NCBI GenBank assembly: GCA_027021705.1
Contig: JALUTT010000117.1
Location: forward strand, 39,099-103,098
From: Anaerolineae bacterium
GTDB lineage: Bacteria; Chloroflexota; Anaerolineae; S140-20
DNA length: 64,000 nucleotides
Reading direction: 5' to 3'
The position numbers and the translations under genes are program-made. Of this stretch, positions 8,436 through 57,285 are shown in pieces. Below the pieces are notes generated by a model. The model did not search any database and had not been told where the DNA came from. It saw only the letters and a list, made by a program, of their open reading frames with translations. The first letter of the stretch is position 1. Every line of letters begins with the position of its first letter.

Positions 8436-9434
<999 letters not shown>

Positions 9435-9457
9435 CCATTTGCAATTCGCAATGTACC

Positions 9458-9567: not shown

Positions 9568-9585
9568 TTGAGGGAGGTGATCCCC

Positions 9586-40903: not shown

Positions 40904-40955
40904 GCTTGATACTCCTCCTGCATGATGGGAATTCTAGACAATTTTCTGTGCTCCA
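40904..40955 (-). promoter_or_regulatory. CRISPR leader (very short)
   Basis: AT-richer 52-bp gap between the cas2 stop and the first repeat. Confidence 0.6.
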
Positions 40956-41240
40956 TCAGTCGGTTTTTGAGCTCACACGGATCAGTTGTAGTCCATCGAA
41001 GTCCACTACCGTCCGCTGAGATGCTCCGGCGACCCGCATCTGCAGACGTTGCTCGTTGTTCGTGTTCCACGCCTGGAAGACGCTGCCGGTTCCTCTCGCC
41101 TTACAACACTTCTCCCACAACCGATCCCGCACCATCGCGTTGACGTGACCAACGAAGACGCCAGGATGCGGCTCGACCAGCCAGCGCGTTAGCTCACCCC
41201 GCAGCGAAGTCGGCACCCGTTCCAGGATCATCACGACCAT
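40956..41240 (-). CDS. cas2: Type I-E Cas2
   Basis: MVVMILERVPTSLRGELTRWLVE..PGVFVG, NNEQ, VDFDGLQL. Confidence 0.95.
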   Translation of the reverse strand: MVVMILERVPTSLRGELTRWLVEPHPGVFVGHVNAMVRDRLWEKCCKARGTGSVFQAWNTNNEQRLQMRVAGASQRTVVDFDGLQLIRVSSKTD

Positions 41241-42159
41241 CTCCCCCTCCTTCAACCTGCAGGCCGGACGGTGGAGACCAAAGGGGCTCCGGCCGCGCAG
41301 GATCGCTATCCGCCTCCCGCCCAGCCATCAAGACTTCCTCCGGCACATCCAATAGGTGCTCGATGTCCGGCAGGATGCGTTGTATCAACCGGTGCTCTTT
41401 GAAAGCATGCCTGCAGGCACGACGGACACGTGGTCCTAGCTCCTCCGTAGATTCGGCCACAATCCGAAAAGCCAGCGGAATGGTCACCTCCACCTTGTAC
41501 AGATCGGCGATGTCGTACACAAACGAGAGTTGCTTGCCCGTGTGGATGAAGCCGATGGCCGGCGAGTAGCCGCCCGAGACAATGGCCGCGTGACACAGCC
41601 CGTTGAGCAACGCATGGGCCATCGAAAGGGCTCGGTTCACCGGGTCGCCGCTGTTCCAGTTCCGCCGGTCGTACCGCCGCCCATGCCAGGGCACCCCGTA
41701 GGTCCGACTGGCCTCGGCATAGGCTTCGCGCACGCGCACCCCCTCGAGCCCCCGGATCTGCTCCAGGCTCAAGCCCGGGGCCAGCGACTCCTGGAAGCGA
41801 TACCGGTACATCCGCAGCACGACCTCTTTTCGCGTGCGCGGATCGCTGGCCAGCCGGGCCTGATGGAGCAGGTGGTACGCCCGCCGGGTTTCACCACCCC
41901 CTTGGGCATAGCACCGGGTACCCTCCTCGCCGCACCAGACGATCAGGCAGCCGTTGTTGGCCAACGCTCTGACGGCCGCATGGGTGATGGTGGTGCCCGG
42001 CCCGAGCATCAACACCCCCAGTGCAGCCGCCGGGATCATCGTGCGCCCGCTCGCATCCACGAACTCGACCGCTTTGTACCGCTGCTCGATGCGGCCATGC
42101 TCCAGGTAGAGGAAGGAAAGCCCATCCCGAAACTTGGGCAGTTCATGCAGATCGCGCAT
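41194..42159 (-). CDS. cas1: Type I-E Cas1
   Basis: LMLGPGTTITHAA, QIRGLEG.RVR, GFIHTG, SFVYDIADLYK. Confidence 0.97.
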   Translation of the reverse strand: MRDLHELPKFRDGLSFLYLEHGRIEQRYKAVEFVDASGRTMIPAAALGVLMLGPGTTITHAAVRALANNGCLIVWCGEEGTRCYAQGGGETRRAYHLLHQARLASDPRTRKEVVLRMYRYRFQESLAPGLSLEQIRGLEGVRVREAYAEASRTYGVPWHGRRYDRRNWNSGDPVNRALSMAHALLNGLCHAAIVSGGYSPAIGFIHTGKQLSFVYDIADLYKVEVTIPLAFRIVAESTEELGPRVRRACRHAFKEHRLIQRILPDIEHLLDVPEEVLMAGREADSDPARPEPLWSPPSGLQVEGGGDGRDDPGTGADFAAG

Positions 42160-42265
42160 CTTGCACCTCCTGAGACCCATAGATGCGGTTGTTAAGGTGC
42201 AAACCCGGGCTTGCACGTTACGGGGAACGGGGCGCCAGACCGCTCCCAGCACTCACCTCGCTCGA

Positions 42266-42907
42266 TCAGACCCTCGGACGGGCCAGGGAAAGCAGCCCGA
42301 AGCCCAGCGCCTTCCCGCTGCCGATGCCTCGGCGCACGGCCTCCCACAGCCGATCCGGATCGGTCACTTCCAAGAACCCATCGAACTGCACGGAGAGCAT
42401 CCGCAGCCGGTGGGTGGCCCCATCTCGATGGATTGTCCCCTCGACCAGCCGCTGCCCTCCGATCCGGGCCGCCAGGACCCGGAAACCAGCCTGCTCCGCC
42501 TTGCGCAGGAGCCACTCCCGTTGTTCTTCCTCCCTGTAGAGGCCCAGCCGCTTGCCGTTCCGCTTGACGGTCGGGTTAGCCCGCAGCCGGAAGACCAGCA
42601 CCTGACCGGGAGCCAGCCGCAGGTCGAAGGACTTGACCGCCGGGTTGGGCTCATCCACCGGCAAGAGGTAGCCTCGCGCTCCCGGCTCCGCCAGCCACGA
42701 CCAGTTGGGAAAGGTGTGCGACTGGACCAGGAGGACGAAGGCGTTCAGCCGGGGATGGTCCTCCAGCCGGAAGAGCACCCGCTCCTCCCCCGGCTCCAAG
42801 CGGTCGGGAAAGGCCCGCATCAGGCTGCGGTGCATCTGGTACAGGTCGGCTACCTCCCGCTGCACGCGGCGGTTGCGAGGGTTCAGGATCAGTCGGGAGA
42901 GATACAT
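42266..42907 (-). CDS. cas6e: Cas6e (Cse3/CasE)
   Basis: MYLSRL, YQMHR, FRLRANP, GIGSGKALGFGLLS Gly-rich loop. Confidence 0.96.
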   Translation of the reverse strand: MYLSRLILNPRNRRVQREVADLYQMHRSLMRAFPDRLEPGEERVLFRLEDHPRLNAFVLLVQSHTFPNWSWLAEPGARGYLLPVDEPNPAVKSFDLRLAPGQVLVFRLRANPTVKRNGKRLGLYREEEQREWLLRKAEQAGFRVLAARIGGQRLVEGTIHRDGATHRLRMLSVQFDGFLEVTDPDRLWEAVRRGIGSGKALGFGLLSLARPRV

Positions 42908-43587
42908 ATCCCTTCCTCCTCTTCTCTCAAAGGGGGAGCCGGGATGAACAGGGTCCGAACGTAACGGGGGGCAAACCGCCGATCATCGGGATCGAAGGAG
43001 AGGGGCTGATCCGGTCGCACCTCCGGCCCGTCCGGGTCCTCGATCACCAGCCGCACTTGCTGGGGACGCTTCTCCGGGTCACAGCCCAGCCAGGGGTAGG
43101 TGCGGAAGGCCGACATCAAGTCCTCGCCGGGCCGCAGGCCGTCCTTCAGCCAGACCGGCTCGCCGGGCACGAAGGCCCTGCGCCCCAGGTAGAGGGGCCA
43201 GACCGGGTTCCGCAGGGCAGCGTGGAGCCGGGCCAGCAGGTCCAGGTCCTCCCCCTCCAGCCCCACCAGGAAGCGGGCATCGGCCAGGTAGTAACGGGTG
43301 GAGACCACCAGGCGATCCTTGTCCACCCGCCCATCGGCCTTCAGGATGCCCCCTTTGCCGGCTGTGTGGAAGTCCCGCGCGATCACCCCTTCCTGGTCCA
43401 CCCGTACTCCCATCCGCAGCCCCGCCAGCTCGGCGATCGGCTCGTCCCGGCGACGCCCCTGGGCGGCGCAGAGCAACCCCACCACGCCGCTCTTGGAGGG
43501 CTCCAAGCCGGTATCCCGCTCGGTGAAGCGGCTCTGCACCCCCCACGACTGCATCGGGCCGACCAGGCGCAGGAGCAGGACGTTCAT
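42889..43587 (-). CDS. cas5e: Cas5e (CasD)
   Basis: LRLVGPMQSWG, PSKSGVVGLLCAA.G, RYYLADA, LYLGRR. Confidence 0.96.
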   Translation of the reverse strand: MNVLLLRLVGPMQSWGVQSRFTERDTGLEPSKSGVVGLLCAAQGRRRDEPIAELAGLRMGVRVDQEGVIARDFHTAGKGGILKADGRVDKDRLVVSTRYYLADARFLVGLEGEDLDLLARLHAALRNPVWPLYLGRRAFVPGEPVWLKDGLRPGEDLMSAFRTYPWLGCDPEKRPQQVRLVIEDPDGPEVRPDQPLSFDPDDRRFAPRYVRTLFIPAPPLREEEEGICISPD

Positions 43588-44708
43588 GCCACCGCCTCCT
43601 CCGCCGGCAACGCCTCCACCACGGCCCGCACCCATGCCTCCAGGTCCGCCACCTGGGCCTCCTTCAGGTGATCCAGCGGCAGATCGGGGTCTAGCGCCAG
43701 GGCAGCGGTGCGGATCAGGGTGTCGGTGCCGTAGACGCGACAGAGCTGCCCCCAGTAGGCATCCAGTGCCGCCACCGAGGGGGTCACCAGCCCGGAATCC
43801 CGACTTGGCCGGACCGGGCGCTCGAAGGCGTTGACCAGCGACCAGCCCATCCCATCCCGGCGGACGACGGCGAGCAGGAAACTGGGCGGGTTGTGGGCGG
43901 CGAAGGCGTTCTGCTTGCCGGAGGGGACGGCAGCGACAGCAGCTCGGAGGAACGCCTCAACGGTACGTTGGGCCAACGCCTTGTCATCGTTGAGGTTTTT
44001 CACCAACTGATCCCAATCCACGCGGGCATACCGGTAGAAGCAGGCGCTGTTGAAGCCGGTGAACCCCATCATCCCCGCCCCGGTCTCCTCCTCTCGGGAG
44101 AGGTCGTCCACAGCGGTGAAGAAGTCCATCTCCATCGCGACCCGATGGGTGGAAATGGCGTGGGCCACTTGGCAGGCGGCCTCCAGGTTGAGCTCCGGCT
44201 TCTCGGCCAGCATGCGGCCAAAGAGGGCGATGTCGGGCGCACCGGTGTGGCCTTTGTGGGCTTTGATGAGGTCTTTGACCAGCTTCTTCATCACCCTCTC
44301 GTCCGAGAGGCGATCCCAGTTGTCGAGCAGAGCCTGCACGATGTCGGCGATCTCGCCCCGGCTGAGATAGAACAGGACCTTGGTGCGTTGGCCGTCTTTG
44401 TCCAAACCGCCGGCATACTGCGGGACGAATTCCTGCAGAATGGCGGTAGCCTCCTCCTCAGGCTTCCCGGCCTCGACCAGGTGACCCCTCAGGAGGCGGA
44501 CGAGCCAGCGGGTGCGGGTACCCACGGCCACCCTGGTGGTCTCGGTGAAGACAGGCGAGGTGCGGATGGCCCGCTTGATGCACTGGGAGGAGATGCGGGC
44601 CCGGCGGACACCGCCGAACTCGCAGTCCTTGGGGTTGTTGGTGTCGTCCCGGTTCAGGTTGGCCGGGGCGAAGTTCTGGATCATATGCACTTCGATGTAC
44701 ATCTTCAT
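43584..44708 (-). CDS. cas7e: Cas7e (Cse4/CasC)
   Basis: NLNRDD..NPK, RARISSQCIKRAIR, IALFGRM, DFFTAVDD, PSGKQN. Confidence 0.96.
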   Translation of the reverse strand: MKMYIEVHMIQNFAPANLNRDDTNNPKDCEFGGVRRARISSQCIKRAIRTSPVFTETTRVAVGTRTRWLVRLLRGHLVEAGKPEEEATAILQEFVPQYAGGLDKDGQRTKVLFYLSRGEIADIVQALLDNWDRLSDERVMKKLVKDLIKAHKGHTGAPDIALFGRMLAEKPELNLEAACQVAHAISTHRVAMEMDFFTAVDDLSREEETGAGMMGFTGFNSACFYRYARVDWDQLVKNLNDDKALAQRTVEAFLRAAVAAVPSGKQNAFAAHNPPSFLLAVVRRDGMGWSLVNAFERPVRPSRDSGLVTPSVAALDAYWGQLCRVYGTDTLIRTAALALDPDLPLDHLKEAQVADLEAWVRAVVEALPAEEAVA

Positions 44709-45211
44709 CCCTCCTTTGTCCTCTGGTTCTGGGTGGAGCGGCCCCAGAAGGCGCTCGCCCACTGCCGCTGTACATATCGGTCTGGGTGCCCCCAGGCCAG
44801 CACGTCTTGTAACAGTTGATGCCAGTTGATCGGCACCTCCTTCGATCTGAGGAAACCGACCGCCTGCCGCAGGTAGACGTCCAAGTCGTCTGGGTGAGCG
44901 GCCAGGAGGACGGTGAACCGCCGCTCGATGGCGGTGTTTTCCCCCTGGGGATCCCGGGCCTGGGCAAAGTGATGGCCCATATTGCCGACGCCCCCGGGGG
45001 CAGGGTGGTAGGCGAAGAGGGAGGCAATGAGGTAGTAGGCCCTTTCCTTCCAGGGGGTGTCGTCTGAAAGCCACGGGACCACGTAGGGGTACATCTCGGC
45101 GACGGTGCCGGGCGGCCGGCCCAGCCCGCGCCGGAGGGCGGCCAGCGCGGCTCGGTCCTCGCGCTCACGCAAGCCCTCCAGGTAGGCGACGAACGATTGC
45201 TCTTTTGTCAT
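44705..45211 (-). CDS. casB: Cse2 (CasB/Cas11)
   Basis: AALAALRRGLG, IERRFTVLL, INWHQLLQD, QWASAFW; position in the operon. Confidence 0.93.
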   Translation of the reverse strand: MTKEQSFVAYLEGLREREDRAALAALRRGLGRPPGTVAEMYPYVVPWLSDDTPWKERAYYLIASLFAYHPAPGGVGNMGHHFAQARDPQGENTAIERRFTVLLAAHPDDLDVYLRQAVGFLRSKEVPINWHQLLQDVLAWGHPDRYVQRQWASAFWGRSTQNQRTKEG

Positions 45212-45234
45212 CAGAACCTCCTTCGCTCCTCGCA

Positions 45235-46755
45235 TCACGACTCGGGCAACACCTTGAGGAGGCCGGCGGCCAGTTTCCCACGGGCGCGGACCACCGCCTT
45301 GAGGGCGCGGGGATCGTGGCTCAGGCCGTCGGCCACTCGCTCGAAGGCCCTCCAAGCCGTCTGCCGCAGCACCTGGCGCCACACCTCCAGCGCTCCCTCC
45401 TCCTCCTTCGGCAAGGACTCCACCAGCGTGCGGAAAGGGAGCTCCAGCCGGGACCAGTAGAACCGGTCTACGGCCCACTGGTTCATCAGCCTATCCAGCT
45501 CCTTCCGATCCGGTTGGCGGCCCTCTTGCGCATCGGCCTCGGGCGAGAGGAGGAGAGTCGCCAACGTGCGCACCGCCCCCCAGAGCTGACGGGAGGCCCC
45601 TTCGGCCATCTCCAGCGCCTCGCTCAACCCCTCCACCAACGCCGGCTCCCGCAGGTAGCGCAGCGGCAGAGGCATCCGCTCGCTGCGGTAGAAGTGGACC
45701 TTGGCCTGGCCGGGCACGCTAGACATTCCCATCGCCAAATAACGGCGAGTCTGCGAAGGGTCCAAGTAACCCTCTTCAATTAGCGTAGCCAGCCAGTAGA
45801 AAGCGAGTGGCGGACGATACCCCTCACTCCGCAACTGAAAGAGGGCCGCGCTGTCCCGCCACAAGGCTCGCTCCGCAGTAAACAAGAGCGGCAGCGGCCC
45901 GCGTTTCTTGTCTTGGAAGTAGTGTTTCATCGGATCAAGAACGCCAGGGGCCAAACGTAAGGCTGGAGCCATCGTTGCCTTTCGCACGATAATATCACCG
46001 CCGGTTCCTTCGGGTAGCAGTAAGATGCGCCGGTTCTGCCAGGTGAGATAGTCCAGATACCCGTATGGTTTGGCGCGATCAGGCGTAAAGGGATCTTCCA
46101 TCTCCCACGCCGGACGATCCTTAGACGGATCATCCCCTATCATGTCCCTAGGGGGGCGTATCAGGTTGAGAGCTAGGGTTTCGAACAATGTCCTACCTTG
46201 TACTAGGAAAATGACGCCACGCGCCCAGGGAGCATCGGTGAATTGCATCGTTGGGCCTTTCGTCCCGCACAGCCCAAACGCCTGCACAGTGACAAGCACC
46301 CGTGCGGCCTGCGCCGGGCTAAGAGCGATACCTTCTACCTCAGTATGGTGGTCGAACAGAGTAGGATTGTTGCCGGAGGCGACCTCGTGGATCAAGCGGT
46401 TGAGCGGTTTGGGCTTCACCCGCTCGTCGGGAGCCTGGTAGAAGGGCCTCTCCGGATGGAAGAGGTCGAACCGATCGCGCCAGCGGTTCAGGTAGTCGTC
46501 CAACCGGGCCGGGTCCCAGCGGCCCGCCTCCCAGAGACGGCCCCACTCACCGAGGGAATCCGGTCCGAAGACGCGGTGCAGCACGGCCAGGAGCAGCCGG
46601 TGGAGCGCTGCCGTCACCAGGGGGGATTCCCCGTGGATCTCGCGCAGTTCGTGGGCCTGGGCCAGGGCGTCCCGCAGCCCCAACTCCACCAGCGTTCCAT
46701 CGGCTCTCAGACAGGGGATCCAGGGGGAACGTAGCAAGTCGAAGGACGGGTTCAT
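45235..46755 (-). CDS. casA: Cse1 (CasA/Cas8e)
   Basis: FDLLRSPWIP, RFDLFHPERPFYQ, LFDH, GRTLFETLALN, YLTWQNRRILL, ALWRD. Confidence 0.94.
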   Translation of the reverse strand: MNPSFDLLRSPWIPCLRADGTLVELGLRDALAQAHELREIHGESPLVTAALHRLLLAVLHRVFGPDSLGEWGRLWEAGRWDPARLDDYLNRWRDRFDLFHPERPFYQAPDERVKPKPLNRLIHEVASGNNPTLFDHHTEVEGIALSPAQAARVLVTVQAFGLCGTKGPTMQFTDAPWARGVIFLVQGRTLFETLALNLIRPPRDMIGDDPSKDRPAWEMEDPFTPDRAKPYGYLDYLTWQNRRILLLPEGTGGDIIVRKATMAPALRLAPGVLDPMKHYFQDKKRGPLPLLFTAERALWRDSAALFQLRSEGYRPPLAFYWLATLIEEGYLDPSQTRRYLAMGMSSVPGQAKVHFYRSERMPLPLRYLREPALVEGLSEALEMAEGASRQLWGAVRTLATLLLSPEADAQEGRQPDRKELDRLMNQWAVDRFYWSRLELPFRTLVESLPKEEEGALEVWRQVLRQTAWRAFERVADGLSHDPRALKAVVRARGKLAAGLLKVLPES

Positions 46756-49700
46756 TCCACCTCCTTTTCGATCGTCAAGCCCAGTTCTCGGCTCAGCCGG
46801 AGCGCGTAGCGGGTGTCGGGGAGCGAGCAGAGGCCGTCTTCGAAGATGAGCACCCGATGGTGGCGTAGCAGAGGGTGGTCGCGCCATCCAGAGGGACCCG
46901 GCTGTTTCAGGAGATGCTGCACAACCCCTTGATGGGTGATCCTAAGTGTATACTGCCCCACCAGCCGTGTCAACCCCCGATCGGGCTCCTGATCCAGGTC
47001 CACCGCCGGTCCACTCCCGTCCGGCTCTAGGGTCAGTCCGACGGCCGTGCGGTGCAGGCAGACGACGGGCAGGCCGGGAGGGCCGGAGCGGGTGAGGGCC
47101 TGGAAAGCCCGATGGACCTCGGGGTTCTCCTCCTCCAGCAGCGCGGTGGTGCTGGCAAGAAGCCCCTCATCGTCGGGGGGAGGGATGAGGCGTTTTTGGG
47201 CCTCGTAGACCCCCTCTTGGTAGTGTTTCTCCATCCGCTGCCGAGCCTCCTCCAGTGCGTCCGCGATCCTATCCGGCAGGTCTGAGGGCAGACCGTCTTC
47301 GTCGCCATAGACGGCCTCGATCAGCGGCTCGGTGTCCTGGGGAAGGACCAACCCCTTCCGCCTCTGAAGGGCCAGGAAGGTGCGCAGCAGGACGTAGGGT
47401 TCGTACACGTAGGCATCCGGCCCGAAGTGGGGAACACCGTCCTGGACGTCAGGGCGGGCGATCAGGAGGCGGGGCGCGGTGAGGGGAGCAGGTCGCCCCT
47501 CCCGGGGGTGGCGATGCAGCCGTCCGGCCCGCTGGAGCAAGAGGTCGGCGGGGGCCAGGTCGGTGATCATCAGGTCGAAGTCCAGGTCCAGGCTCTGCTC
47601 GATCACCTGGGTGGCGACGACGATGGCCTTGGCAGGCCGCTTCCCATCTTTGCCGAAGCGGTCGAGGACTTTCCGCTCGATCTCGTCCCGCCAGGCGGAG
47701 GGGTAACGGGCGTGGAAGAGGATCAAGTCCTCCTCCGGCACGATGCGGGCCTCCTTGATCGCCCGATAGACCTCTTGAGCCCGCCGGACCGTATTGCAAA
47801 GGACGGCGGCACACCCTCCTTCGCGCAGCTCCTCGGCCAGGCGACGGGCAAGGGCCTCGGGCTCCCGCTCGACCCACTCCAGCGCGATGGTGCGACCATC
47901 CGTCGCCTCCAACGGCACGACGCCGATCTCTCCCTCCATCGCCCAGGTGATGGCCGGGTAGGAGACTTCGGGCACCTCGGAGACACCGGCATAGGCCCGG
48001 AGCAGTTCGCGCCGGGCGCGGGCAGGGAGCGTGGCCGAGAGGATGACGACGGAAGCGCCGACGGCCCGCAGCCAGGTCAGCAGCCGCCGGAACAGGGTGG
48101 ACATATAGGTGTCGTAGGCGTGGACTTCGTCGAAGACGACGGTCTTGTGGCTGAGGCCGAAGAGGCGGACGAAGAAGTGGCGGGTTTGGAGCACGCTCAG
48201 CAGGGCCTGGTCCACCGTGCCGACGCCAAAGGGGGCCAGCAGGGTACGCTTGCGGGGGAGGAACCAGGTCAGCGCGGCTACTTTGCCCTCGTCGCCCTCC
48301 TCCAGCTCGTCGGTGGTCTCCAGGAGCAGCGTCTCCACCTCCTCCGACCAGCGGGCCTGGCTGTGGACCAGGTGGAGGTTGACCAGGCGGTCTGGATAGC
48401 GTCGGACCAGCACCTCCTTCACGCGGCGGAAGATCTGGTTGCTGGTGGCCATCGTGGGCATGGCGACGTAGAGGCCCCGCTGCTGGAGGACCCGCGCCCA
48501 GTGATCGGCCAGGTAGAGGGCAGCTTCCGTCTTGCCGCTGCCTGTTGGGGCCTCGATGATGACCAGGGCGGGGCGGTTCAGCCGTTTCGCCAGCTCCACG
48601 ACCGCCTGCTGCATTGGACGGGGCTTCAGTTGGAAGAGTCGGTCGAACGAGGCAGGCTCTGCGGGCGGCTGCCACCCAAGCCATCCCAGCGCCTTCAGCG
48701 CCTCTCGGGCCTGCTCTTCCGCCTGCTCCGTGTAGCGGTCGAGGTCAACCGGCGGGTCCACGTAGGGGAAGAACCGCTCCATCGAGCCGATCCAGTCGGC
48801 GACGGTGGTGAGGCCGGAGAGGAGGGTCAGCACAGCCTGCTCCTTCTTCGGAGAGGTCTCCAACCCCTTCACAGCGGGCGGCTTGAGCTGTTGGGTCATC
48901 GCACGCACCAGATCGCGCCGGACCTCATCCCATCCCTCTCCCCCCACCTGTTTCGAGAGGAGGCGCTGCAACGCGAGGGACGAAGGCCAGGCCCCGTGGT
49001 GGCCGCCCACGCTTCGGGCGAGCCGCCGGGCCGGACGGCGGGGCAGACCGATCTCGGCTTCCAGGAGGTCTCCCAGGACGTGCGCGGAGATCGTTCCGTG
49101 GGGAGGGTGTTTGGCCGTGAACTGGCGAGGGAAGGGGAGACCGTCACGCTCCAGCGGCTTGACGGCGGGGGAATACAGCCGCTGGAAGGCGGGGCTGGCC
49201 TTGCCGATGTCATGCAGGCCGGCCAGGAGGGCGAGGAACCGCCCGGCCTCTCCGACACCCAGGCCCATTGAGGTGGCGATCTGGTCACGAAGACCGGCGG
49301 TGAGGGCCTCATCCCACAGCGCCAAGGCCACCACGGCCACATCGAGCATGTGGCAGATGAGGGGATGGGTGCGGGCCTTGCCCTTGTCGGCCTTGGCCCA
49401 CAACCGCTGGTAGGTCGGTATGGGCTGGATGCCGTAGAGGTCCGCCATTCTCTGGACCTCGTTCATCAGCGCATCCCGCAGCTCCTCCGGCGCTATGACC
49501 TCCACGTCCGCCCCCCAGCCTCGGATCCAGGGGAGCATCTCCTGCGGCTCGGCCACCCGGGCCCGCCAGAGCAAGCTCCCGTCCGGCTGCTCCTTCACCT
49601 GCTCGGACCGATGCCAGCGGGTCTCACGCACCCGATGGGCCACTCGCGGGTGGAAGCGGAGGACGACTTCCACAGGCTCCCTCTCGGTGTACCAGATGCC

Positions 49701-50402
49701 CCAGGCGTCGGCCAGATGTTGGCGGGGGTCGAAGTCGGGGGCGATCTCGTAGGACTCGTCCAGCTTCTCAATGCGCCGAATGCGCTCGATCTTGAACGTG
49801 CGCAGCGCTCCCGGTGGCTCCCGCCAGCCGATGACGTGAGTCGTCCGCCCCACCGGGTAGGGTTCGATGAAGTAGGGAGCGAAGACGTACTCGTAGACCT
49901 GCTTCGTCTCCTCGTGCCAGTGCCATATCCGCACCTTCCGCCGCTCGGACCAGGCGCGGGTCAGCGTTTCCAGCACCTGCATGTACACCGGATCGTCACG
50001 GCGGGCTGCTTCGTCCATCACATCGGCGGAGCGCTTCAGGTGCTCGCTGATCAGAGGGGCCAGCTTTTCCAGGGCGATCCCCAGCTTGCGCAGGGCCGAG
50101 GCGGCGTGGGGATTATGCCGGTCGGTGCGGGTCGCCATCATCCGGGCTGCCAGGTGAAGGGCCATCGCCTCGTGGAGGGTGAAACGGACCTGGGTCAGGT
50201 AGTGATCCCGATCTATGGCCAGCCGTCCATCATCGGTCTCGTAGACGGCGAAGCGATCGAGGTCGGGCAGGTAGCGGTGGATGGTCGAACGGTGTACCTC
50301 CAGGCGTCGGGCGATCTCCGCCTGGGTAAGCCCCTCCGGATGGGCCAGCAGGAGCGCTTCGATCTGCAACAGCCGTTCGGCCTTTCCGACAGCTCTCGCC
50401 AT
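46752..50402 (-). CDS. cas3: HTH-WYL-WCX regulator fused to Cas3 (HD nuclease plus SF2 helicase), 1216 aa
   Basis: About aa 1-325: HTH (LTQAEIARRLEVHRSTIHRYL), WYL (PYFIEPY, LRTFKIERI), WCX (WIRGWGADVEVIAPEELR). Then LWAK, HMLD, HDIGK, HHG, ADWIGS (HD) and APTGSGKTE, DEVH, SAT, QRAGRLHRH (helicase) in one continuous ORF. Confidence 0.93.
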   Translation of the reverse strand: MARAVGKAERLLQIEALLLAHPEGLTQAEIARRLEVHRSTIHRYLPDLDRFAVYETDDGRLAIDRDHYLTQVRFTLHEAMALHLAARMMATRTDRHNPHAASALRKLGIALEKLAPLISEHLKRSADVMDEAARRDDPVYMQVLETLTRAWSERRKVRIWHWHEETKQVYEYVFAPYFIEPYPVGRTTHVIGWREPPGALRTFKIERIRRIEKLDESYEIAPDFDPRQHLADAWGIWYTEREPVEVVLRFHPRVAHRVRETRWHRSEQVKEQPDGSLLWRARVAEPQEMLPWIRGWGADVEVIAPEELRDALMNEVQRMADLYGIQPIPTYQRLWAKADKGKARTHPLICHMLDVAVVALALWDEALTAGLRDQIATSMGLGVGEAGRFLALLAGLHDIGKASPAFQRLYSPAVKPLERDGLPFPRQFTAKHPPHGTISAHVLGDLLEAEIGLPRRPARRLARSVGGHHGAWPSSLALQRLLSKQVGGEGWDEVRRDLVRAMTQQLKPPAVKGLETSPKKEQAVLTLLSGLTTVADWIGSMERFFPYVDPPVDLDRYTEQAEEQAREALKALGWLGWQPPAEPASFDRLFQLKPRPMQQAVVELAKRLNRPALVIIEAPTGSGKTEAALYLADHWARVLQQRGLYVAMPTMATSNQIFRRVKEVLVRRYPDRLVNLHLVHSQARWSEEVETLLLETTDELEEGDEGKVAALTWFLPRKRTLLAPFGVGTVDQALLSVLQTRHFFVRLFGLSHKTVVFDEVHAYDTYMSTLFRRLLTWLRAVGASVVILSATLPARARRELLRAYAGVSEVPEVSYPAITWAMEGEIGVVPLEATDGRTIALEWVEREPEALARRLAEELREGGCAAVLCNTVRRAQEVYRAIKEARIVPEEDLILFHARYPSAWRDEIERKVLDRFGKDGKRPAKAIVVATQVIEQSLDLDFDLMITDLAPADLLLQRAGRLHRHPREGRPAPLTAPRLLIARPDVQDGVPHFGPDAYVYEPYVLLRTFLALQRRKGLVLPQDTEPLIEAVYGDEDGLPSDLPDRIADALEEARQRMEKHYQEGVYEAQKRLIPPPDDEGLLASTTALLEEENPEVHRAFQALTRSGPPGLPVVCLHRTAVGLTLEPDGSGPAVDLDQEPDRGLTRLVGQYTLRITHQGVVQHLLKQPGPSGWRDHPLLRHHRVLIFEDGLCSLPDTRYALRLSRELGLTIEKEVE

Positions 50403-50501
50403 AAGCTCACTCTCCTTTCTGAGGACTGCGCATCCTTGTTGCCAGGCACCCCCATTATACCATCAGTACCCACGGAATTCCGCAACAGGTGAGCAGGAAT
50501 T

Positions 50502-50714
50502 TCACTTCTTGCGCCTGCGAAACAGGCTCAGGAACCCTCTCTCGTCCTCCATCAGCAGCGTGCCCCGCTCCTCCAACGCCGGCAGGTCCCGTTGCACCGT
50601 CGAGCGGGGAACCCCGAGCAACCGTGCCAGATGGCTGGGACGGATACCGTCGGGGTATTCGGGGATCAGCTCCTCGTAGCGGTCCAGGCGTGCGCTGTTC
50701 GGTTTGCGCCCCAT
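50502..50714 (-). CDS. Small winged-HTH protein, paralogous to the HTH of the WYL-Cas3
   Basis: PDGIRPSHLARLLGVPRSTVQRDLPALE...EDERGFL vs PEGLTQAEIARRLEVHRSTIHRYLPDLD...ETDDGRL; SD GGAGGTGG. Confidence 0.8.
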   Translation of the reverse strand: MGRKPNSARLDRYEELIPEYPDGIRPSHLARLLGVPRSTVQRDLPALEERGTLLMEDERGFLSLFRRRKK

Positions 50715-50758
50715 TGTCCACCTCCATCGGTCGGATTTGCCTCCATCCTACCGATGGG

Positions 50759-50779
50759 GTGTTGCACCTACCGCAACAC
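50759..50779. promoter_or_regulatory. Candidate operator palindrome
   Basis: GTGTTGC-N7-GCAACAC about 45 bp upstream of the small HTH start. Confidence 0.45.
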
Positions 50780-50806
50780 GTGCCAACGCCCGGCGCACCG
50801 AGGGGG

Positions 50807-50983
50807 GCAAGGGGCAGGGGGCAAGTTGCAAGGGGCAAGGGGCAAGGGGCAAGGGGCAAGTTGCAAGTTGCAAGGGGCAAGGGGCAAGGGGCAAGTTGCA
50901 AGGGGCAAGTTGCAAGAGCTGAGGACTGAGGACCGAGGACCAAACGACCACCTGACCACCCGACCACCCGACCACCCGACCAC
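50807..50983. repeat. Compound short tandem repeat block, same unit order and orientation as 35812-35940
   Basis: (CAAGGGG/CAAGTTG)n, then CTGAGGA/CCGAGGA, then (GACCACCY)n. Confidence 0.9.
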
Positions 50984-51098
50984 AAGAACCTTCCCCCACC
51001 GGCGAAAATGGTGTAAAATCAAGGCAGCAGTCGGCACGCCCGACGGCGCTCTCTCCCTACCGCGAAGGCGCGGGAAACGCCGCGAGGAGCACCGTGCA

Positions 51099-54000
51099 AT
51101 GGACCCCACCGACTTTTTGGGGAACCTGGCCGCAGAGGTGGCGGCGGACCTGGTGGGGCGGATGCTCTCCGCCCTGGGCACCGCCCTGCGCGGCACCCCC
51201 CAGGAGCAGGCCCTGCGCGAGGCCTACGCCCAGGCCATCGCCGCTTTCCCGGCCTGCTTGGAAATGCCGGAGGAGCCGGGGATCCGCCAGGTCTGGCAGA
51301 CATACCTGAAGCCCTTCTTCGACGATCCCCGGGTGCAGAAGGCCCTGACCGAGCTGGTGCTTTACGAGGGCCGGCCCGAGGCAGTGGACTTGGCCCCCTT
51401 CCGGGCTGCCTGGGCCGAGCACTACGGCCCCGGCGCAGAGGCCACCCTGCCTTGGCGGGAAGGGGAGAGCCTGGAGACGGCGATCCGCGCCTTCGCCCGC
51501 GCCTTCGAGCGGGAGGCCGAATCCCGGCCCGATCTGCACACCTTCCTCATCGCCGCCCGGCTCAAGCGGGTCGTGGACCGGCTGGAGCGGGGGGTGCCGG
51601 TCGAGGGGATGGAGGCCCTGCTGGCTGCCGTGGGGCGGCTGGCCGACCGGCACGACCAACTCCTGGCCCTCTTCACCCACCTGGCCCGGATGGGCTACGG
51701 CGTGCGGGTGGGAGGCGACGTCACGAACAGCGTCCTCATCACCGGAGACAACAACCAGGTGGTCGTAGCCGACCGGGGACTGCTCGCCGGCCTTTTCCAG
51801 GCCCTGCCCGACCGGGAGCGGATGCTCACCGAGTACCGCGCCCACCTCCGCCGCACCCACGCCCTCCTCGACCTCCGAGGTCTGACCCTTCCGCAGATCC
51901 ACGGGAAGCCCCTGGACCCCACCCTGGTGCGCATCCCCCTGGACCGTGTCTACATCAAGCTGCGGGCACTGCCCCGCCAAGAGCAGCCCGAGGCCCCGCC
52001 CCCGCCCGACGACGCCGAGGCGATCGCCCGCTACCTGCGAGCGCGGCAGAGGCCGGTGGAACGCCCCTTCGGCGAGGAGGCCGTTCCACCGGAGCAGGCG
52101 GTGCAGGAACATCCCACCCTGGTCATCCTCGGCGATCCCGGCGCGGGGAAGTCCACCTTCCTCCGCCACTTGACCTGGGTCGAGGCGGCCGGGGGGAGAG
52201 CCCTGCCGCTGCTGGTCCCCCTCGGCCGGGTTGACGTGGCGATGGCAGGGGTCCATTCCCTGGTGGATGCCGCCTTGGACGTCCTGACCGCCCACAAGGC
52301 CGGGGGGGAGCGGGACCGGTTGCGAAGGGTGCTGGAGGAGGAGATCAACGCCAAGCGGGTCCTGTGGCTGCTGGACGGCCTGGATGAGGTGCGACAGCAC
52401 CGCAGCGAGGTGGTGGAGGGCATCGCCGGACTGATGGCCGACGGACATCGGGTGGTGGTGACCTCCCGCCCGGTGGGGTATGAGATGATCCCCGGCTGCG
52501 ACACCCTGTACCACGTGCTACCGCTCCTCCCGGAGGACGCCCGGTCCTTTGTAGACCGCTGGTTCATCGCCCTGGCCGAGGCCCAGGGGGTGCCGGAGAG
52601 GGAACGGGAGCGATGGGCCCAGGAGCGGGCCGGGTGGCTGAGGGAGCAAGTCGAAAGCCGCCCCGGCCTGCGGGAAGTGGCTCAGAACCCGCTGATGCTC
52701 ACCTTCCTGGCCGTGCTGGCGGGAGATGAACCGAGGGAGGAATTCCCACGCCATCGGAAGGACCTCTACGCTCGGTACGTGGACCGGCTCGTCACCACCT
52801 GGGAGATCCGACGGCGAGGAGGGGAGGGGGTGTCGCTGCTGGAGGGGATCGCGGACCCCCACGAGGCGCGGGAGGTGGCGTTGTGGGGGTTCGAGCGGGT
52901 GGCGCTTCACCTGCACCGGGCCTACAGCGGACGGCCCGGGGAGGCCATCCGCGACAGGGTGAGGGCCTATCTGGCGGGACAACTGGCGCAGGCGACGGGG
53001 GCAAGCCGCTTCCGGGCCAACGGGTGGGCCAAGGCGATCCTGGATTTCTGGGAGCGGGCGGGATTGCTGGACCGGTATCCGATCCGGGGGCAAGAGTGGC
53101 TGGCCTTCCGACACCTGACCTTCCAGGAATACGGTGCCGCCCGCGCCCTGGCCGAGGCCCACGGGGGCGACCCCGACGGTCTGTGGGCCGAACTGGAGCC
53201 ACACCTCCTAGAGGACGAGTGGGCCCAGGTCATCCCCCTGGCGCTGGCCCAGTTACAGGACGCCACGCCCCTTCTGGAGCGGCTGCTGGAGGCCGACGGC
53301 GAGGACGAGGCCCGCCGCCGGCCCCTCTTCCTGGCGGCGGCGGCGATGGCGGAGGGGGCCGTGGCGGAGGATGGAGTGCGATGGCGGGTGGTGGACGGCC
53401 TGGAGCACCTGGCGCGAACGCGGGATTGGTGGGAATGGAGAAGGGCGAGTGCCTCTGATGCGCTGGCCGCGCTGGGTCGGATGGAAGGGGACCCCTACGC
53501 TGCCCGGCGGCTCCTCGCCCTGGCCCTCGACGAAAGCGTGGATGCCCGGGTGCGGGTGAACGCCGCCAGGGAGCTCGGCCGGCTGGGCCGGGCCGACGAA
53601 GCTGCCCCCATCCTCCTCGCCCTGGCCCACGACGAAAGCGTGGATGCCCGGGTGCGGGTGAACGCCGCCTGGGCGCTGGGCCGGCTGGGCCGGGCCGACG
53701 ACCTTCTGGCCCTGGCCCGCGATGAGGACGTGGATACCTGGGTGCGGAAAGAAGCCGCCAAGGCGCTGGGCCAACTGGGCCGGGCCGACGACCTTCTGGC
53801 CCTGGCCCGCGACGGAAGCGTGGATGTCTGGGTGCGGGAAGAAGCCGCCGAGGCGCTGGGCCGGCTGGGCCGGGCCGACGACCTTCTGGCCCTGGCCCGC
53901 GACGGAAGCGTGAATACTCGGGTGCGGGTGAACGCCGCCGAGGCGCTGGGCCAACTGGGCCGGGCCGACGACGCTGCCCCCATCCTCCTCGCCCTGGCTC

Positions 54001-56903
54001 GCGACGAGAGCGTGGATGCCTGGAGGCGGGTGAACGCCGCCGAGGCGCTGGGCCGGCTGGGCCGGGCCGACGAAGCCGCCCCCATCCTCCTCGCCCTGGC
54101 CCGCGACGAAAGCGTAGATGCCCGGGTGCGGGTGAACGCCGCCTGGGCGCTGGGCCGGCTGGGCCGGACCGACGAGGCCGCCCCCATCCTCCTCGCTCTG
54201 GCCCGCGACGAAAGCGTAGATGCCCGGGTGCGGGTGAACGCCGCCTGGGCGCTGGGCCGGCTGGGCCGGGCCGACGAAGCCGCTCCCATCCTCCTCGCCT
54301 TGGCCCGCGACGAAAGCGTGGATGCCTGGAGGCGGGTGAACGCCGCCGAGGCGCTGGGCCGGCTGGGCCGGGCCGACGAAGCTGCCCCCATCCTCCTCGC
54401 CCTGGCCCGCGACGGAAGCGTGGATGCCGAGGTGCGGGTGGACGCCGCCGAGGCGCTGGGCCGGCTGGGCCGGGCCGATGAGGCTGCCCAAGCCTGGCTC
54501 GCCCTGGCCCGCGACGGAAGCGTGGATGCCGAGGTGCGGGTGAACGCCGCCGAGGCACTGAGCCGGCTGGGCTGGGCCGACAACTTTCTGGCCCTGACCC
54601 GCGACGGAAGCGTGGATGCCTGGAGGCGGGTGAACGCTGCCAGGGAGCTCGGCAGGCTGGGCCAGGCCGATGCAGCTGCCCCCATCCTCCTCGCCCTGGC
54701 CCGCGACGAAAGCGTGGATGTCTGGGTGCGGGTGAACGCCGCCTGGGCGCTGGGGGAACTGGGTCAGGTCAATGAAGCTGCCCAAGCCTGGCTTGCCTTG
54801 GCCCGCGACGAAAGCGTGGATGCCTGGAGGCGGGTGAATGCCGCCGAGGCGCTAGGTGAACTGGGCCCGGCCGACGAAGCCACCCCCATCCTCCTCGCCC
54901 TGGCCCGCGACGAAAGCGTAGATGCCCGGGTGCGGGTGAACGCCGCCTGGGCGCTGGGCCGGCTGGGCCGGGCCGACGAAGCCGCTCCCATCCTCCTCGC
55001 CCTGGCCCGCGACGGAAGCGTGGATGCCGAGGTGCGGGTGGACGCCGCCGAGGCGCTGGGCCGGCTGGGCCGGGCCGACGACCTTCTGGCCCTGGCCCGC
55101 GATGAGGACGTGGATACCTGGGTGCGGAAAGAAGCCGCCAAGGCACTGGGCGAACTGGGCCGGGCCGATGAAGCTGCCCAAGCCTGGCTCGCCCTGGCCC
55201 GCGACGGAAGCGTGGATGCCGAGGTGCGGGTGAACGCCGCCGAGGCACTGAGCCGGCTGGGCCGGGCCGATGAAGCTGCCCCCATCCTCCTCGCCCTGGC
55301 CCGCGACGGAAGCGTGGATGCCGAGGTGCGGGTGGACGCCGCCAAGGCGCTGGGCCGGCTGGGCCGGGCCGATGAAGCTGCCCAAGCCTGGCCCGCCCTG
55401 GCCCGCGACGGAAGCGTGGATGCCGAGGTGCGGGTGAACGCTGCCAGGGAGCTCGGCAGGCTGGGCCGGGCCGATGCAGCTGCCCCCATCCTCCTCGCCC
55501 TGGCCCGCGACGAAAGCGTGGATGTCTGGGTGCGGGTGAACGCCGCCTGGGCGCTGGGGGAACTGGGTCAGGTCAATGAAGCTGCCCAAGCCTGGCTTGC
55601 CTTGGCCCGCGACGAAAGCGTGGATGTCTGGGTGCGGGTGAACGCCGCCTGGGCGCTGGGGGAACTGGGTCAGGTCAATGAAGCTGCCCAAGCCTGGCTT
55701 GCCTTGGCCCGCGACGAAAGCGTGGATGCCTGGAGGCGGGTGAATGCCGCCGAGGCGCTGGGCTGGCTGGGCCGGGCCGACGAAGCCGCCCCCATCCTCC
55801 TCGCCCTGGCCCGCGACGAAAGCGTGGATGCCTGGAGGCGGGTGAATGCCGCCGAGGCGCTGGGCTGGCTGGGCCGGGCCGACGAAGCCGCCCCCCTCCT
55901 CCTCGCCCTGGCCCGCGACGAAAGCGTAGATGCCCGGGTGCGGGTGAACGCCGCCGAGGCGCTAGGTGAACTGGGCCCGGCCGACGAAGCCGCCCCCCTC
56001 CTCCTCGCCCTGGCCCGCGACGAAAGCGTGGATGCCGAGGTGCGGGTGAACGCTGCCAGGGAGCTCGGCAGGCTGGGCCGGGCCGACGAAGCCGCCCCCC
56101 TCCTCCTCGCCCTGGCCCGCGACGAAAGCGTAGATGCCCGGGTGCGGGTGAACGCCGCCTGGGCGCTGGGCCGGCTGGGCCGGGCCGACGAAGCCGCCCC
56201 CCTCCTCCTCGCCCTGGCCCGCGACGAAAGCGTGGATGTCTGGGTGCGGGTGAATGCCGCCGAGGCGCTGGGGGAACTGGGCCGGGCCGACGACCTTCTG
56301 GCCCTCGCCCGCGATGAGAACGTGGATACCTGGATGCGGGAAGAAGCCGCCAAGGCACTGGGCGAACTGGGCCGGGCCGACGAAGCCGCCCCCCTCCTCC
56401 TCGCCCTGGCCCGCGATGAGAACGTGGATACCTGGGTGCGGGAAGAAGCCGCCAAGGCGCTGGGGGAACTAGGCCGGGCCGACGAAGCCGCCCCCCTCCT
56501 CCTCGCCCTGGCCCGCGACGAAAGCGTGGATGTCTGGGTGCGGGTGAGCGCCGCCGAAGCGCTAGGCCGGCTGGGCCGGGCCGACGAAGCTGTCCCCATT
56601 CTCCTCGCCCTGGCCCGCGACGGAAGCGTGGATGCCCGGGTGCGGGTGAGCGCTGCCTGGGCGCTGGGCCGGCTGGGCCGGGCCGACGAAGCCGCCCCCA
56701 TCCTCCTCGCCCTGGCCCACGACGGAAGCGTGGATGCCGAGGTGCGGGCGAGTGCGGTCGAGGCGCTGGGAGAACTGGGCCGAGCCGCTGCCAGGCCAGA
56801 GGTGACAGGGGTGGTGACAGGACTGCGGGCGCTGGCCGAGGATGCCACCACGCCCTTGTTGGTGCGCCGGGCGGCGCGGCGAGCCTTGCAGCGATGGACG
56901 TAG
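51099..56903 (+). CDS. NACHT (STAND) NTPase with C-terminal HEAT-like repeats, bacterial NLR-like, about 1934 aa
   Basis: Start MDPTDF after AGGAG; VYIKL, ILGDPGAGKST (Walker A), LLDGLDE (Walker B), VTSR, NPLML, FRHLTFQEY; 33 repeats at the C-terminus. Confidence 0.9.
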   Translation: MDPTDFLGNLAAEVAADLVGRMLSALGTALRGTPQEQALREAYAQAIAAFPACLEMPEEPGIRQVWQTYLKPFFDDPRVQKALTELVLYEGRPEAVDLAPFRAAWAEHYGPGAEATLPWREGESLETAIRAFARAFEREAESRPDLHTFLIAARLKRVVDRLERGVPVEGMEALLAAVGRLADRHDQLLALFTHLARMGYGVRVGGDVTNSVLITGDNNQVVVADRGLLAGLFQALPDRERMLTEYRAHLRRTHALLDLRGLTLPQIHGKPLDPTLVRIPLDRVYIKLRALPRQEQPEAPPPPDDAEAIARYLRARQRPVERPFGEEAVPPEQAVQEHPTLVILGDPGAGKSTFLRHLTWVEAAGGRALPLLVPLGRVDVAMAGVHSLVDAALDVLTAHKAGGERDRLRRVLEEEINAKRVLWLLDGLDEVRQHRSEVVEGIAGLMADGHRVVVTSRPVGYEMIPGCDTLYHVLPLLPEDARSFVDRWFIALAEAQGVPERERERWAQERAGWLREQVESRPGLREVAQNPLMLTFLAVLAGDEPREEFPRHRKDLYARYVDRLVTTWEIRRRGGEGVSLLEGIADPHEAREVALWGFERVALHLHRAYSGRPGEAIRDRVRAYLAGQLAQATGASRFRANGWAKAILDFWERAGLLDRYPIRGQEWLAFRHLTFQEYGAARALAEAHGGDPDGLWAELEPHLLEDEWAQVIPLALAQLQDATPLLERLLEADGEDEARRRPLFLAAAAMAEGAVAEDGVRWRVVDGLEHLARTRDWWEWRRASASDALAALGRMEGDPYAARRLLALALDESVDARVRVNAARELGRLGRADEAAPILLALAHDESVDARVRVNAAWALGRLGRADDLLALARDEDVDTWVRKEAAKALGQLGRADDLLALARDGSVDVWVREEAAEALGRLGRADDLLALARDGSVNTRVRVNAAEALGQLGRADDAAPILLALARDESVDAWRRVNAAEALGRLGRADEAAPILLALARDESVDARVRVNAAWALGRLGRTDEAAPILLALARDESVDARVRVNAAWALGRLGRADEAAPILLALARDESVDAWRRVNAAEALGRLGRADEAAPILLALARDGSVDAEVRVDAAEALGRLGRADEAAQAWLALARDGSVDAEVRVNAAEALSRLGWADNFLALTRDGSVDAWRRVNAARELGRLGQADAAAPILLALARDESVDVWVRVNAAWALGELGQVNEAAQAWLALARDESVDAWRRVNAAEALGELGPADEATPILLALARDESVDARVRVNAAWALGRLGRADEAAPILLALARDGSVDAEVRVDAAEALGRLGRADDLLALARDEDVDTWVRKEAAKALGELGRADEAAQAWLALARDGSVDAEVRVNAAEALSRLGRADEAAPILLALARDGSVDAEVRVDAAKALGRLGRADEAAQAWPALARDGSVDAEVRVNAARELGRLGRADAAAPILLALARDESVDVWVRVNAAWALGELGQVNEAAQAWLALARDESVDVWVRVNAAWALGELGQVNEAAQAWLALARDESVDAWRRVNAAEALGWLGRADEAAPILLALARDESVDAWRRVNAAEALGWLGRADEAAPLLLALARDESVDARVRVNAAEALGELGPADEAAPLLLALARDESVDAEVRVNAARELGRLGRADEAAPLLLALARDESVDARVRVNAAWALGRLGRADEAAPLLLALARDESVDVWVRVNAAEALGELGRADDLLALARDENVDTWMREEAAKALGELGRADEAAPLLLALARDENVDTWVREEAAKALGELGRADEAAPLLLALARDESVDVWVRVSAAEALGRLGRADEAVPILLALARDGSVDARVRVSAAWALGRLGRADEAAPILLALAHDGSVDAEVRASAVEALGELGRAAARPEVTGVVTGLRALAEDATTPLLVRRAARRALQRWT
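53529..56783 (+). repeat. 33 tandem coding repeats of 102 or 90 bp (34 or 30 aa, HEAT-like)
   Basis: Consensus D(E/G)SVDAxVRVNAAxALGxLGRADEAAPILLALAR; very high DNA-level similarity between units. Confidence 0.95.
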
Positions 56904-56987
56904 CCCGTCACTCCCGCAGGTCGCGCGGTGCTCGGCGACGGCAACGGCTTATCGGAGTGAGGAGAACCTGCGGGAGGGGCCGGGTGC

Positions 56988-57250: not shown

Positions 57251-57285
57251 TGCACCGTCCGGGCGGGGGGTTGACCTTCGACGGC

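Follow-up and report, generated by a model that had tools for sequence, protein, structure and literature searches.

We describe a gene in a 64-kb window (the whole stretch of DNA that was analysed) of contig JALUTT010000117.1, which belongs to the genome of an Anaerolineae bacterium (GCA_027021705.1; 5.19 Mb in 183 contigs, 94.9% complete). The gene encodes a very large protein related to the NLR immune sensors of animals and plants, hereafter the NLR, and locates next to a type I-E CRISPR-Cas locus. A GAGGAG box lies 9 nt upstream of its ATG at 51099. A preliminary description of the window had proposed a tripartite architecture with a helical N-terminal domain, a NACHT domain and 33 repeats, and it recognised no enzymatic domain at the N-terminus. 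Our analysis bears this out. Pfam detects NNH2, NACHT with its motifs and HEAT repeats within one open reading frame (ORF), a regular-expression parse returns exactly 33 repeat units, and the N-terminus corresponds to NNH2, a domain that is named but uncharacterised. Between NNH2 and NACHT we find a short beta motif that resembles the adaptor domain EAD10. The features of the gene, in positions of the window, are as follows.

51099..56903, plus strand: NLR-like gene, 1934 residues, with NNH2, EAD10-like motif, NACHT and 33 HEAT repeats (open frame, translation, Pfam)
51099..51689, plus strand: all-helical N-terminal domain, residues 1-197 (Pfam NNH2, AlphaFold)
51120-51584, plus strand: Pfam NNH2 (PF22734, NACHT N-terminal helical domain 2), residues 8-162, above the cut-off of 27
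51693..51776, plus strand: EAD10-like beta motif VRVGGDVTNSVLITGDNNQVVV, residues 199-226, between NNH2 and NACHT (motif hidden Markov model (HMM), hhalign, AlphaFold)
51804..53519, plus strand: conserved NACHT module, residues ~236-807 (most homologues align from residue ~236 onward)
52116-52568, plus strand: Pfam NACHT (PF05729), residues 340-490, 33.4 bits, cut-off 26.7
52131-52157, plus strand: Walker A GDPGAGKST, residues 345-353 (GxxxxGK[ST] read from the translation)
52368-52388, plus strand: Walker B LLDGLDE, residues 424-430 (D[GAS]hDE NACHT signature)
53520..56801, plus strand: 33 alphaRep-like HEAT repeats (regular-expression parse, Tandem Repeats Finder, PDB match)

In the NTPase region, the Walker motifs are followed by TSRP at residue 455 and a conserved NPLML at residue 530. 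Across 18 aligned homologues (A2), eight residues do not vary, namely G345, G348, G350, K351, D426, D429, S456 and R457. A sequence search of residues 1-810 against the PDB returned nothing at E<=0.01, and the profile of the 18 homologues matches the NACHT domain of NLRC4 (E 5.1e-5, profile positions 339-600). The D[GAS]hDE signature after Walker B is described as diagnostic of NACHT (Kibby et al., bioRxiv 10.1101/2022.07.19.500537). We assign the protein, on its motifs and profile, to the NACHT clade of STAND NTPases, with NTPase motifs that read as intact.

According to the same preprint, phage protection by bNACHT proteins depends on the Walker A lysine, HEAT repeats are listed among sensors of the antigen-receptor type, and NNH is a named domain. 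The NLR resembles these proteins in its NACHT with D[GAS]hDE, its C-terminal HEAT repeats, its variable N-terminal position and its organisation as a single gene with its own promoter region. It differs from them in carrying NNH2, where the figure legend of that work names only NNH1 among the tested proteins, and in its 33 near-identical repeats and internal EAD10-like motif.

Residues 1-810 were used to search for homologues. Among length-matched candidates 58 proteins were found at E<=0.001, the best of them 65% identical, and an exhaustive search of cluster representatives gave 8802 at E<=0.001, of which 159 reach E<=1e-30. Among the best 150 representatives, the majority align only from residue ~236 onward, and therefore the region before residue 236 is a swappable module. 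The Pfam lists of the 58 homologues contain NNH2 (4), DUF4062 (6), Trypsin_2 (4), CHAT (3) and EAD10 (1). The same NACHT-HEAT core also carries PF00656, PF04471 and PF00149, which we take to be a caspase, an Mrr-type nuclease and a metallophosphoesterase. Such domain swapping before NACHT corresponds to the effector-position behaviour that the Supplementary Discussion of Kibby et al. describes for bacterial NACHT proteins.

Eighteen of 41 genomes, our own included, match at E<=1e-10, none above 37% identity, and outside our own genome no match among them reaches the NNH2 part. Of 150 other genomes of the phylum, none matches the NNH2 model at E<=1e-4, and the NNH2 family appears to be rare. 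Because no orthologue was found in 40 relatives and no NNH2 match in these 150 genomes, the NLR gene is accessory and patchy. Its G+C content is 72.9% (71.4% in the non-repeat part) versus 66.0% for the genome, which may reflect an Ala/Arg/Gly-rich composition or a foreign origin. Meanwhile, one NNH2-NACHT homologue, at locus L034, is split into two ORFs (6975-7946 and 7970-9619), possibly through a broken gene or a sequencing error.

The NNH2 assignment rests on 31.8 bits for the whole protein and 36.7 bits for residues 1-340, against a cut-off of 27. AlphaFold predicts helices throughout residues 3-197, with a mean pLDDT of 77.7 and 78.8 in models from 18 and 7 sequences. Structural comparison by VIA gave a best Z of 7.1 for the model of residues 1-340 and 4.8 for residues 1-200 alone. 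Such fold scores are within the noise for helical proteins, and therefore neither a new fold nor a relation is shown by them. In the ESM Atlas, residues 1-235 reach 0.88 at best and 0.86 for a cluster of ~200-residue NNH2 proteins, both below the 0.9 mark and thus leads only. In an alignment of seven sequences (A4), the invariant columns of NNH2 hold no polar residue except one Arg, and for this reason NNH2 is unlikely to be an enzyme.

The EAD10-like motif contains three predicted strands (residues 201-204, 211-214 and 220-223). In the monomer model they form a three-strand meander, with a mean pLDDT of 71-89 per 10-residue block. We built a motif HMM from seven instances in the genome, the NLR copy included, and applied it at a threshold of E<=0.01. 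It detects 13 ORFs in the genome, plus related loci. The motif is internal in the NLR, in C77 (NNH2-like with another STAND NTPase), in C36 and C178 (NACHT) and in C73 (Trypsin_2 with a STAND NTPase). It is N-terminal in C162, C88 (CHAT), C144 (NB-ARC), a STAND protein of C181 and a 92-residue open frame on C171. In three stand-alone proteins, it lies toward the C-terminus: a helical protein of 152 residues in C120, a helical protein of 180 residues in C181 and a trypsin-like protein in C175. The small protein of C181 has a hydrophobic first helix and is Bab-like in layout, and the C175 protein follows the order Trypsin_2, motif, zinc ribbon. The three stand-alone genes, found with the motif HMM, are located as follows.

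L096:4075-4530, minus strand: stand-alone motif protein
L099:11225-11764, minus strand: stand-alone motif protein
L102:2287-3102, minus strand: stand-alone motif protein

The relationship to EAD10 was traced through these relatives. Pfam EAD10 (PF19954; cut-off 24.1) gives 38.2 bits for the N-terminus of the C181 STAND protein and 24.6 bits for the first 79 residues of the NLR homologue at the metagenome locus L041, and the tail of the small C181 protein reaches 20.7 bits, below the cut-off. Aligning the motif family (A5) with EAD10-type N-termini (A6) by hhalign yields 96.7% and E 3.2e-10 over 39 columns, covering the beta half only; of the four rows of A6, two exceed the cut-off of EAD10 (38.2 and 24.6 bits), one stays below it (21.2) and one is unscored. 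This comparison indicates that the motif of the NLR is related to the adaptor EAD10.

EADs have been described as small non-enzymatic adaptors that are present on a core NTPase and once more on effectors, in many cases in an adjacent gene, and EAD10 as one of three EADs with mixed alpha and beta character (Kaur et al. 2020, PMC7159879). They are proposed to couple the NTPase and the effector by homotypic interaction (PMC7159879, PMC8195603). EAD10 is placed at the N-terminus of TPR-GreA/B-C-PIN proteins (Kaur et al. 2021, PMC8195603). A parallel description exists for BASS11, an amyloid motif that both Bab and Agp carry, which drives abortive infection in E. coli and is needed for it, and which is also reported with NACHT, NB-ARC, CHAT and TIR (Ibarlosa et al., bioRxiv 10.1101/2024.11.07.622273). 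Because both are placed at the N-terminus of TPR-GreA/B-C-PIN proteins, we infer that EAD10 and BASS11 are the same element, a match of descriptions rather than of alignments.

The metagenome loci L040, L041 and L042 show the motif in a two-gene arrangement. Each has a helical protein of 141 residues that ends in the motif, 4 bp upstream of a NACHT-HEAT gene that starts with the motif. Two of these units are positioned as follows.

L041, 1143-1565 and 1569-6137: motif protein, then EAD10-NACHT-HEAT gene
L040, 651-1073 and 1077-5678: motif protein, then EAD10-NACHT-HEAT gene

The EAD10-NACHT-HEAT proteins of the L040 and L041 pairs have 1520-1530 residues. The proteins of L040-L042 are ~32% identical to the NLR, and the alignment begins at the motif. 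The NLR looks like a fusion of such a gene pair, in which NNH2 would replace the small helical protein. Bell/NLR gene pairs are described in a preprint of Dyrka et al., which also notes all-in-one forms. With EAD10-coupled STAND systems and BASS11 Bab/Agp, the motif family shares a short Gly/Asp/Asn-rich beta motif that, within one genome, is C-terminal in small helical or peptidase proteins and N-terminal in STAND NTPases, and that marks adjacent gene pairs in the relatives L040-L042. The NLR itself departs from those pairs, as its motif is internal, after a domain of 197 residues. The arrangement described for BASS, with the motif at the C-terminus of the effector and at the N-terminus of the adjacent NLR, is found only in L040-L042. 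The stand-alone motif proteins provide concrete candidates for an effector that would act in trans. The preliminary description had raised signalling to an effector in trans as an idea, which gains a concrete though provisional basis in the shared motif.

The C-terminal part of the NLR is a nearly uniform array (Pfam HEAT_2, 380 bits). Its 33 units comprise 26 of 34 residues, 6 of 30 residues and one C-terminal cap, and Tandem Repeats Finder reports 53511-56770 with a period of 102 bp, 32.7 copies and 84% matches. The 26 long units have a mean identity of 78% in protein and 84% in DNA, and two pairs are identical in DNA. Little or no variation is seen at 16 of the 34 repeat positions. Entropy is concentrated at positions 9, 10, 14, 17 and 21, and less at 5, 11, 13, 24 and 31, with radical substitutions such as W/R/E at position 10, E/W/K/R at 17 and R/E/Q/W at 21. 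Positions 10, 14, 17 and 21 are spaced i, i+4, i+7 and i+11, which corresponds to one face of a helix. By pairwise Nei-Gojobori comparison, the ratio of nonsynonymous to synonymous substitution rates (dN/dS) is 1.82 at the 10 variable positions versus 0.25 at the other 24, with a dS of ~0.24 in both. Because the variable sites were picked after inspecting the variation, the value above 1 is partly circular, and the informative part of the comparison is the contrast at equal dS.

The array matches the alphaRep artificial binders in the PDB (E 3.8e-38). At E<=1e-10 there are 22 distinct PDB sequences that match it, most of them alphaRep chains, and in the alignments shown for the search the positions that differ between repeats within an alphaRep chain align with array positions 9, 10, 13, 14, 17 and 21. 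The alphaRep library was randomised at positions 18, 19, 22, 23, 26 and 30, chosen, as described by Guellouz et al. (2013, PMC3754942), from natural repeat variability. These are the same six positions in alphaRep numbering, and therefore the natural array varies where the engineered binders are randomised. The variable positions of the array are likely its binding positions. The array thus belongs to the same HEAT-like family as the alphaRep scaffold (PDB 9sah, 6fsq, 4zv6 and others) and shares its hypervariable sites. Unlike alphaRep, it has units of 34 and 30 residues instead of the designed 31, it is fused to NACHT, and it counts 33 repeats where library proteins have a few. Meanwhile, the PADLOC families HEAT-ARM_XIII, TPR and PDC-M16B and the NCBIfam families SDR, VexE and CpeY also matched the protein; these matches cover the repeats only, and we rejected them as family assignments.

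On the basis of these features, we consider it probable, though far from settled, that the gene product is an NLR-related STAND NTPase of the NACHT clade, made as one polypeptide with a sensor of antigen-receptor type, and that it works in the following way. The solenoid of 33 repeats would display one hypervariable face and bind a non-self protein, most likely from a phage. Ligand binding may then lift autoinhibition, so that NACHT exchanges or binds NTP and oligomerises, a step we infer from the family. Oligomerisation would cluster the N-terminal modules. The non-enzymatic NNH2 takes the place that caspase, trypsin, CHAT, DUF4062, nuclease or phosphoesterase domains have in relatives, and the EAD10-like motif could recruit or template the stand-alone proteins that end in the same motif. 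The output may be growth arrest or death of the infected cell, via NNH2 or via motif proteins in trans. We regard the odds between NNH2 acting itself and partners recruited in trans as roughly even. A role in defence is suggested by family membership and by the neighbourhood of the gene.

A number of observations weigh against this picture. For the coupling motif, the 64-kb window contains no motif-bearing partner, the stand-alone carriers lie on other contigs, and that of C120 is not adjacent to a STAND gene. Pfam EAD10 does not match the NLR itself, either at E<=1 in residues 1-340 or at E<=0.05 in residues 168-267, and its motif lacks the helical first half of EAD10. For NNH2, Foldseek against the PDB returned nothing at E<=0.001 with the model of residues 1-340 or with residues 1-200. 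The profile, Foldseek and VIA searches detected no sequence or structural relative of known function, and because of this the output step is a guess.

Other points concern the sensor and the family. The longest exact repeat inside the array is 158 bp, and the contigs that public sequencing runs give for the array are pieces of just 113-171 bp, so that the number and order of the units rest on one assembly. Contigs of run X1 match the unique flanks of the array at 100%, and the contigs of four public runs neither confirm nor refute the order of repeats. Among the public runs that hold the stretch, no RNA run is on record. PADLOC at E<=0.01 matched the NLR with only four families, one of them a P-loop match and none of them Avs, and no defence-specific model matches. 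The NCBIfam models EruA (cut-off 1000) and HyoA (cut-off 1200) give 51 and 38 bits. Furthermore, apart from the CRISPR-Cas locus and a PIN/DUF2281 pair, the genes of the window are housekeeping genes.

Avs/AVAST proteins are STAND NTPases in which an effector position lies at the N-terminus and a repeat sensor for phage proteins at the C-terminus. The NLR shares this layout of NTPase, effector position and repeats. It differs in the NACHT clade of its NTPase, in having no nuclease, protease or SIR2 effector, and in matching no Avs family of PADLOC at the threshold given above.

Both the adaptor principle and the class of architecture, in which NACHT is joined to HEAT repeats and an NNH-type N-terminus, have been published before, and the NLR is a new, unusually repeat-rich member of the published class. 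Less ordinary is the EAD10-like motif kept inside an all-in-one receptor. We found no paper on that arrangement, for which no dedicated literature search was made, and a string search of the literature for the motif core (ITGDNN and similar) gave no relevant paper among those listed. One polypeptide unites three published ideas, namely the NACHT switch, the antigen-receptor repeat array and an EAD10-like coupling motif. It offers a concrete test of whether all-in-one bacterial NLRs signal to unlinked effectors, and through it the uncharacterised NNH2 could be given a function. Current views are not overturned by this finding.

NNH2 itself might be the effector, damaging the membrane on oligomerisation like plant CC, fungal HeLo or bacterial Bell/Bab domains, in which case the motif would be a structural linker only and a partner in trans would be unnecessary. 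NNH2 is indeed in the effector position and non-enzymatic, the motif is predicted as a folded three-strand meander in the monomer model, and the tested anti-phage NLRs are reported to include some with Bell-like N-terminal helices (bioRxiv 10.1101/2024.11.07.622273). However, a comparison by hhalign between NNH2 (A4) and the genome's Bab-like small proteins (A3) gives only 0.3%, and the first helix of NNH2 carries charged residues. The profile of the Bab-like proteins (A3) in turn finds nothing meaningful in the PDB (best E 0.004). Moreover, a passive linker would not account for the sharing of the motif with stand-alone proteins and gene pairs. We regard this form of membrane damage by NNH2 as doubtful, though worth keeping in view.

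We also speculate, tentatively and without rating it as likely, that the NLR is one node of a genome-wide templating network of the EAD10/BASS11 type, in which NNH2 serves as a cap and the receptor is all-in-one yet signals in trans. At rest, the motif would be folded against NNH2, and it would become exposed on ligand binding and formation of the NACHT ring. The clustered motifs could then nucleate polymerisation of the unlinked C120 and C181 proteins, taken here as small, Bab-like and membrane-targeting, and/or of the trypsin-like C175 protease. If this is true, at least a dozen different STAND sensors of the genome would share these effectors, like receptors that feed one ASC- or HET-S-like executioner.

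On the other hand, the receptor may serve a purpose other than phage defence, either recognition of self and non-self among kin or a developmental programmed cell death. Its model is allorecognition in fungi, which is served by NLRs of the HET-E and NWD type whose repeats are highly conserved. The genome holds 18 NACHT-like matches, 10 of them above the Pfam cut-off, together with several NB-ARC and other STAND genes with EAD10, and repertoires of this kind have been described for multicellular bacteria. Conserved repeats with few hypervariable sites are the pattern that the Dyrka et al. preprint reports for fungal and bacterial NLRs. As set out in the Dyrka and Ibarlosa preprints, fungal HET-E/NWD NLRs combine NACHT with tandem repeats of ~80% internal identity and few diversifying positions, and their family includes all-in-one as well as two-gene, motif-coupled forms such as the NWD2/HET-S pair. 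The NLR is like them in both respects. In contrast to them, its repeats are HEAT rather than WD40, ANK or TPR, its host is a bacterium, and no relation of NNH2 to HeLo or Bell is detectable. The bacterial NACHT proteins reported as tested by Kibby et al. act against phage. The NLR gene, too, stands beside CRISPR-Cas, and homologues stand beside restriction-modification (RM)-like and candidate defence genes. These points render a role in kin recognition or developmental cell death quite unlikely.

The surroundings of the gene bear on one further proposal, namely that it is coupled to CRISPR-Cas. The relevant features of the contig are as follows.

36050..40904, no strand assigned: CRISPR array, 61-bp period, with 74 exact copies of the 27-nt repeat core on the contig
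41194..50402, minus strand: type I-E cas genes, HTH-WYL-WCX-Cas3, Cse1, Cas7e, Cas5e, Cas6e and Cas1e (Pfam, PADLOC)
46752-50402, minus strand: HTH-WYL-WCX-Cas3 fusion, 1216 residues, with HTH, WYL and WCX N-terminal (Pfam, PADLOC)
50502..50714, minus strand: winged-helix protein of 70 residues, first gene of the cas-side transcription unit (HTH_IclR 24.9 bits, cut-off 22)
50715..51098, no strand assigned: divergent intergenic region of 384 bp, mostly short tandem repeats (GGGGCAA x15 at 50804-50909; CGACCACC x4.9 at 50945-50983)
57286-58215, minus strand: PstS-family gene, convergent, next downstream of the NLR gene and followed by BacA and TGT

The preliminary description had placed the NLR gene head-to-head with the HTH/WYL-cas3 operon across about 380 bp. 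The gap is indeed 384 bp, and the divergent neighbour is the 70-residue winged helix-turn-helix (wHTH) gene that precedes the HTH-WYL-Cas3 operon. No co-directional gene follows downstream, in line with the earlier remark that no effector gene is adjacent. Because the next downstream gene (PstS-like) is convergent, the NLR gene is monocistronic and transcribed on its own. In a scan of 50350-57400, neither sigma-70 consensus promoters nor terminators were detected. The remaining 35 kb of the window code for leucine and pantothenate biosynthesis, ABC transporters and the like. The locus is a cluster of two systems rather than a large defence island.

In the proposal of coupling, the NLR would be an innate arm or back-up of the adaptive system, co-regulated from the 384-bp region by the wHTH protein and/or by the HTH-WYL part of Cas3. 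The head-to-head order agrees with this, and so does the wHTH protein, a paralogue of the N-terminal HTH of the Cas3 fusion (37% identity over 59 residues). Contigs of run X2, from a second study and ~98% identical, join the wHTH gene, the intergenic repeats and the start of the NLR gene, and therefore the arrangement holds in a close strain. This strain is too close to count as independent, and the copy number of the intergenic repeats varies between public runs (X2 skips 35 bp). One of the 18 NACHT-like matches lies beside the single I-E locus, for which a rough estimate under random placement is ~1-3%.

The comparative evidence, however, speaks against coupling. I-E cas homologues were found at 0 of 91 related loci from other genomes, of which 32 are longer than 10 kb and 53 longer than 5 kb. 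Among 70 neighbour ORFs of 12 related loci, PADLOC found no cas family except for a weak Cas3 row under a helicase. No copy of the 70-residue wHTH gene stands beside any NLR homologue, and in the 40 relatives, as noted above, no orthologue of the NLR was found. Defence genes are known to cluster without functional coupling. The co-regulation suggested in the preliminary description thus found no support at these loci, and we judge coupling to CRISPR-Cas very unlikely; the position of the NLR gene looks like defence-gene clustering rather than a mechanistic link, and adjacency to CRISPR-Cas alone should not be taken as functional coupling.

Each of five long-flank related loci that were scanned has at least one PADLOC match in its flanks, a figure that stands without a background control. 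The matches include a type IIG RM/DrmMI-like gene at L035, a SAVED_CHAT-like gene at L030 and mad2 at L033. We also notice the PADLOC candidate PDC-M05 just downstream of NACHT-HEAT homologues, at L034:10322-11339 (A and B) and at L019:7225-7818 (A).

Within the window, a DUF2281 and PIN-domain gene pair at 26662-27467 (plus strand) lies among housekeeping genes and is probably a toxin-antitoxin module. Inside the CRISPR array, at 40625-40904, a 125-bp unit of two repeats and two spacers is present in 2.2 copies at 100% identity, and this points either to duplication of a spacer pair or to an artefact of assembly. Meanwhile, a composite repeat module of [GGGGCAA/GTTGCAA]n, GCTGAGGAC-type units and [GACCACCY]n occurs at 35813-35938 and 50804-50983 in the same orientation. 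The two modules flank the CRISPR-cas locus, one abutting the far end of the array and the other lying in the spacer between the wHTH and NLR genes. Eight such composite repeats are found on 7 contigs of the genome.

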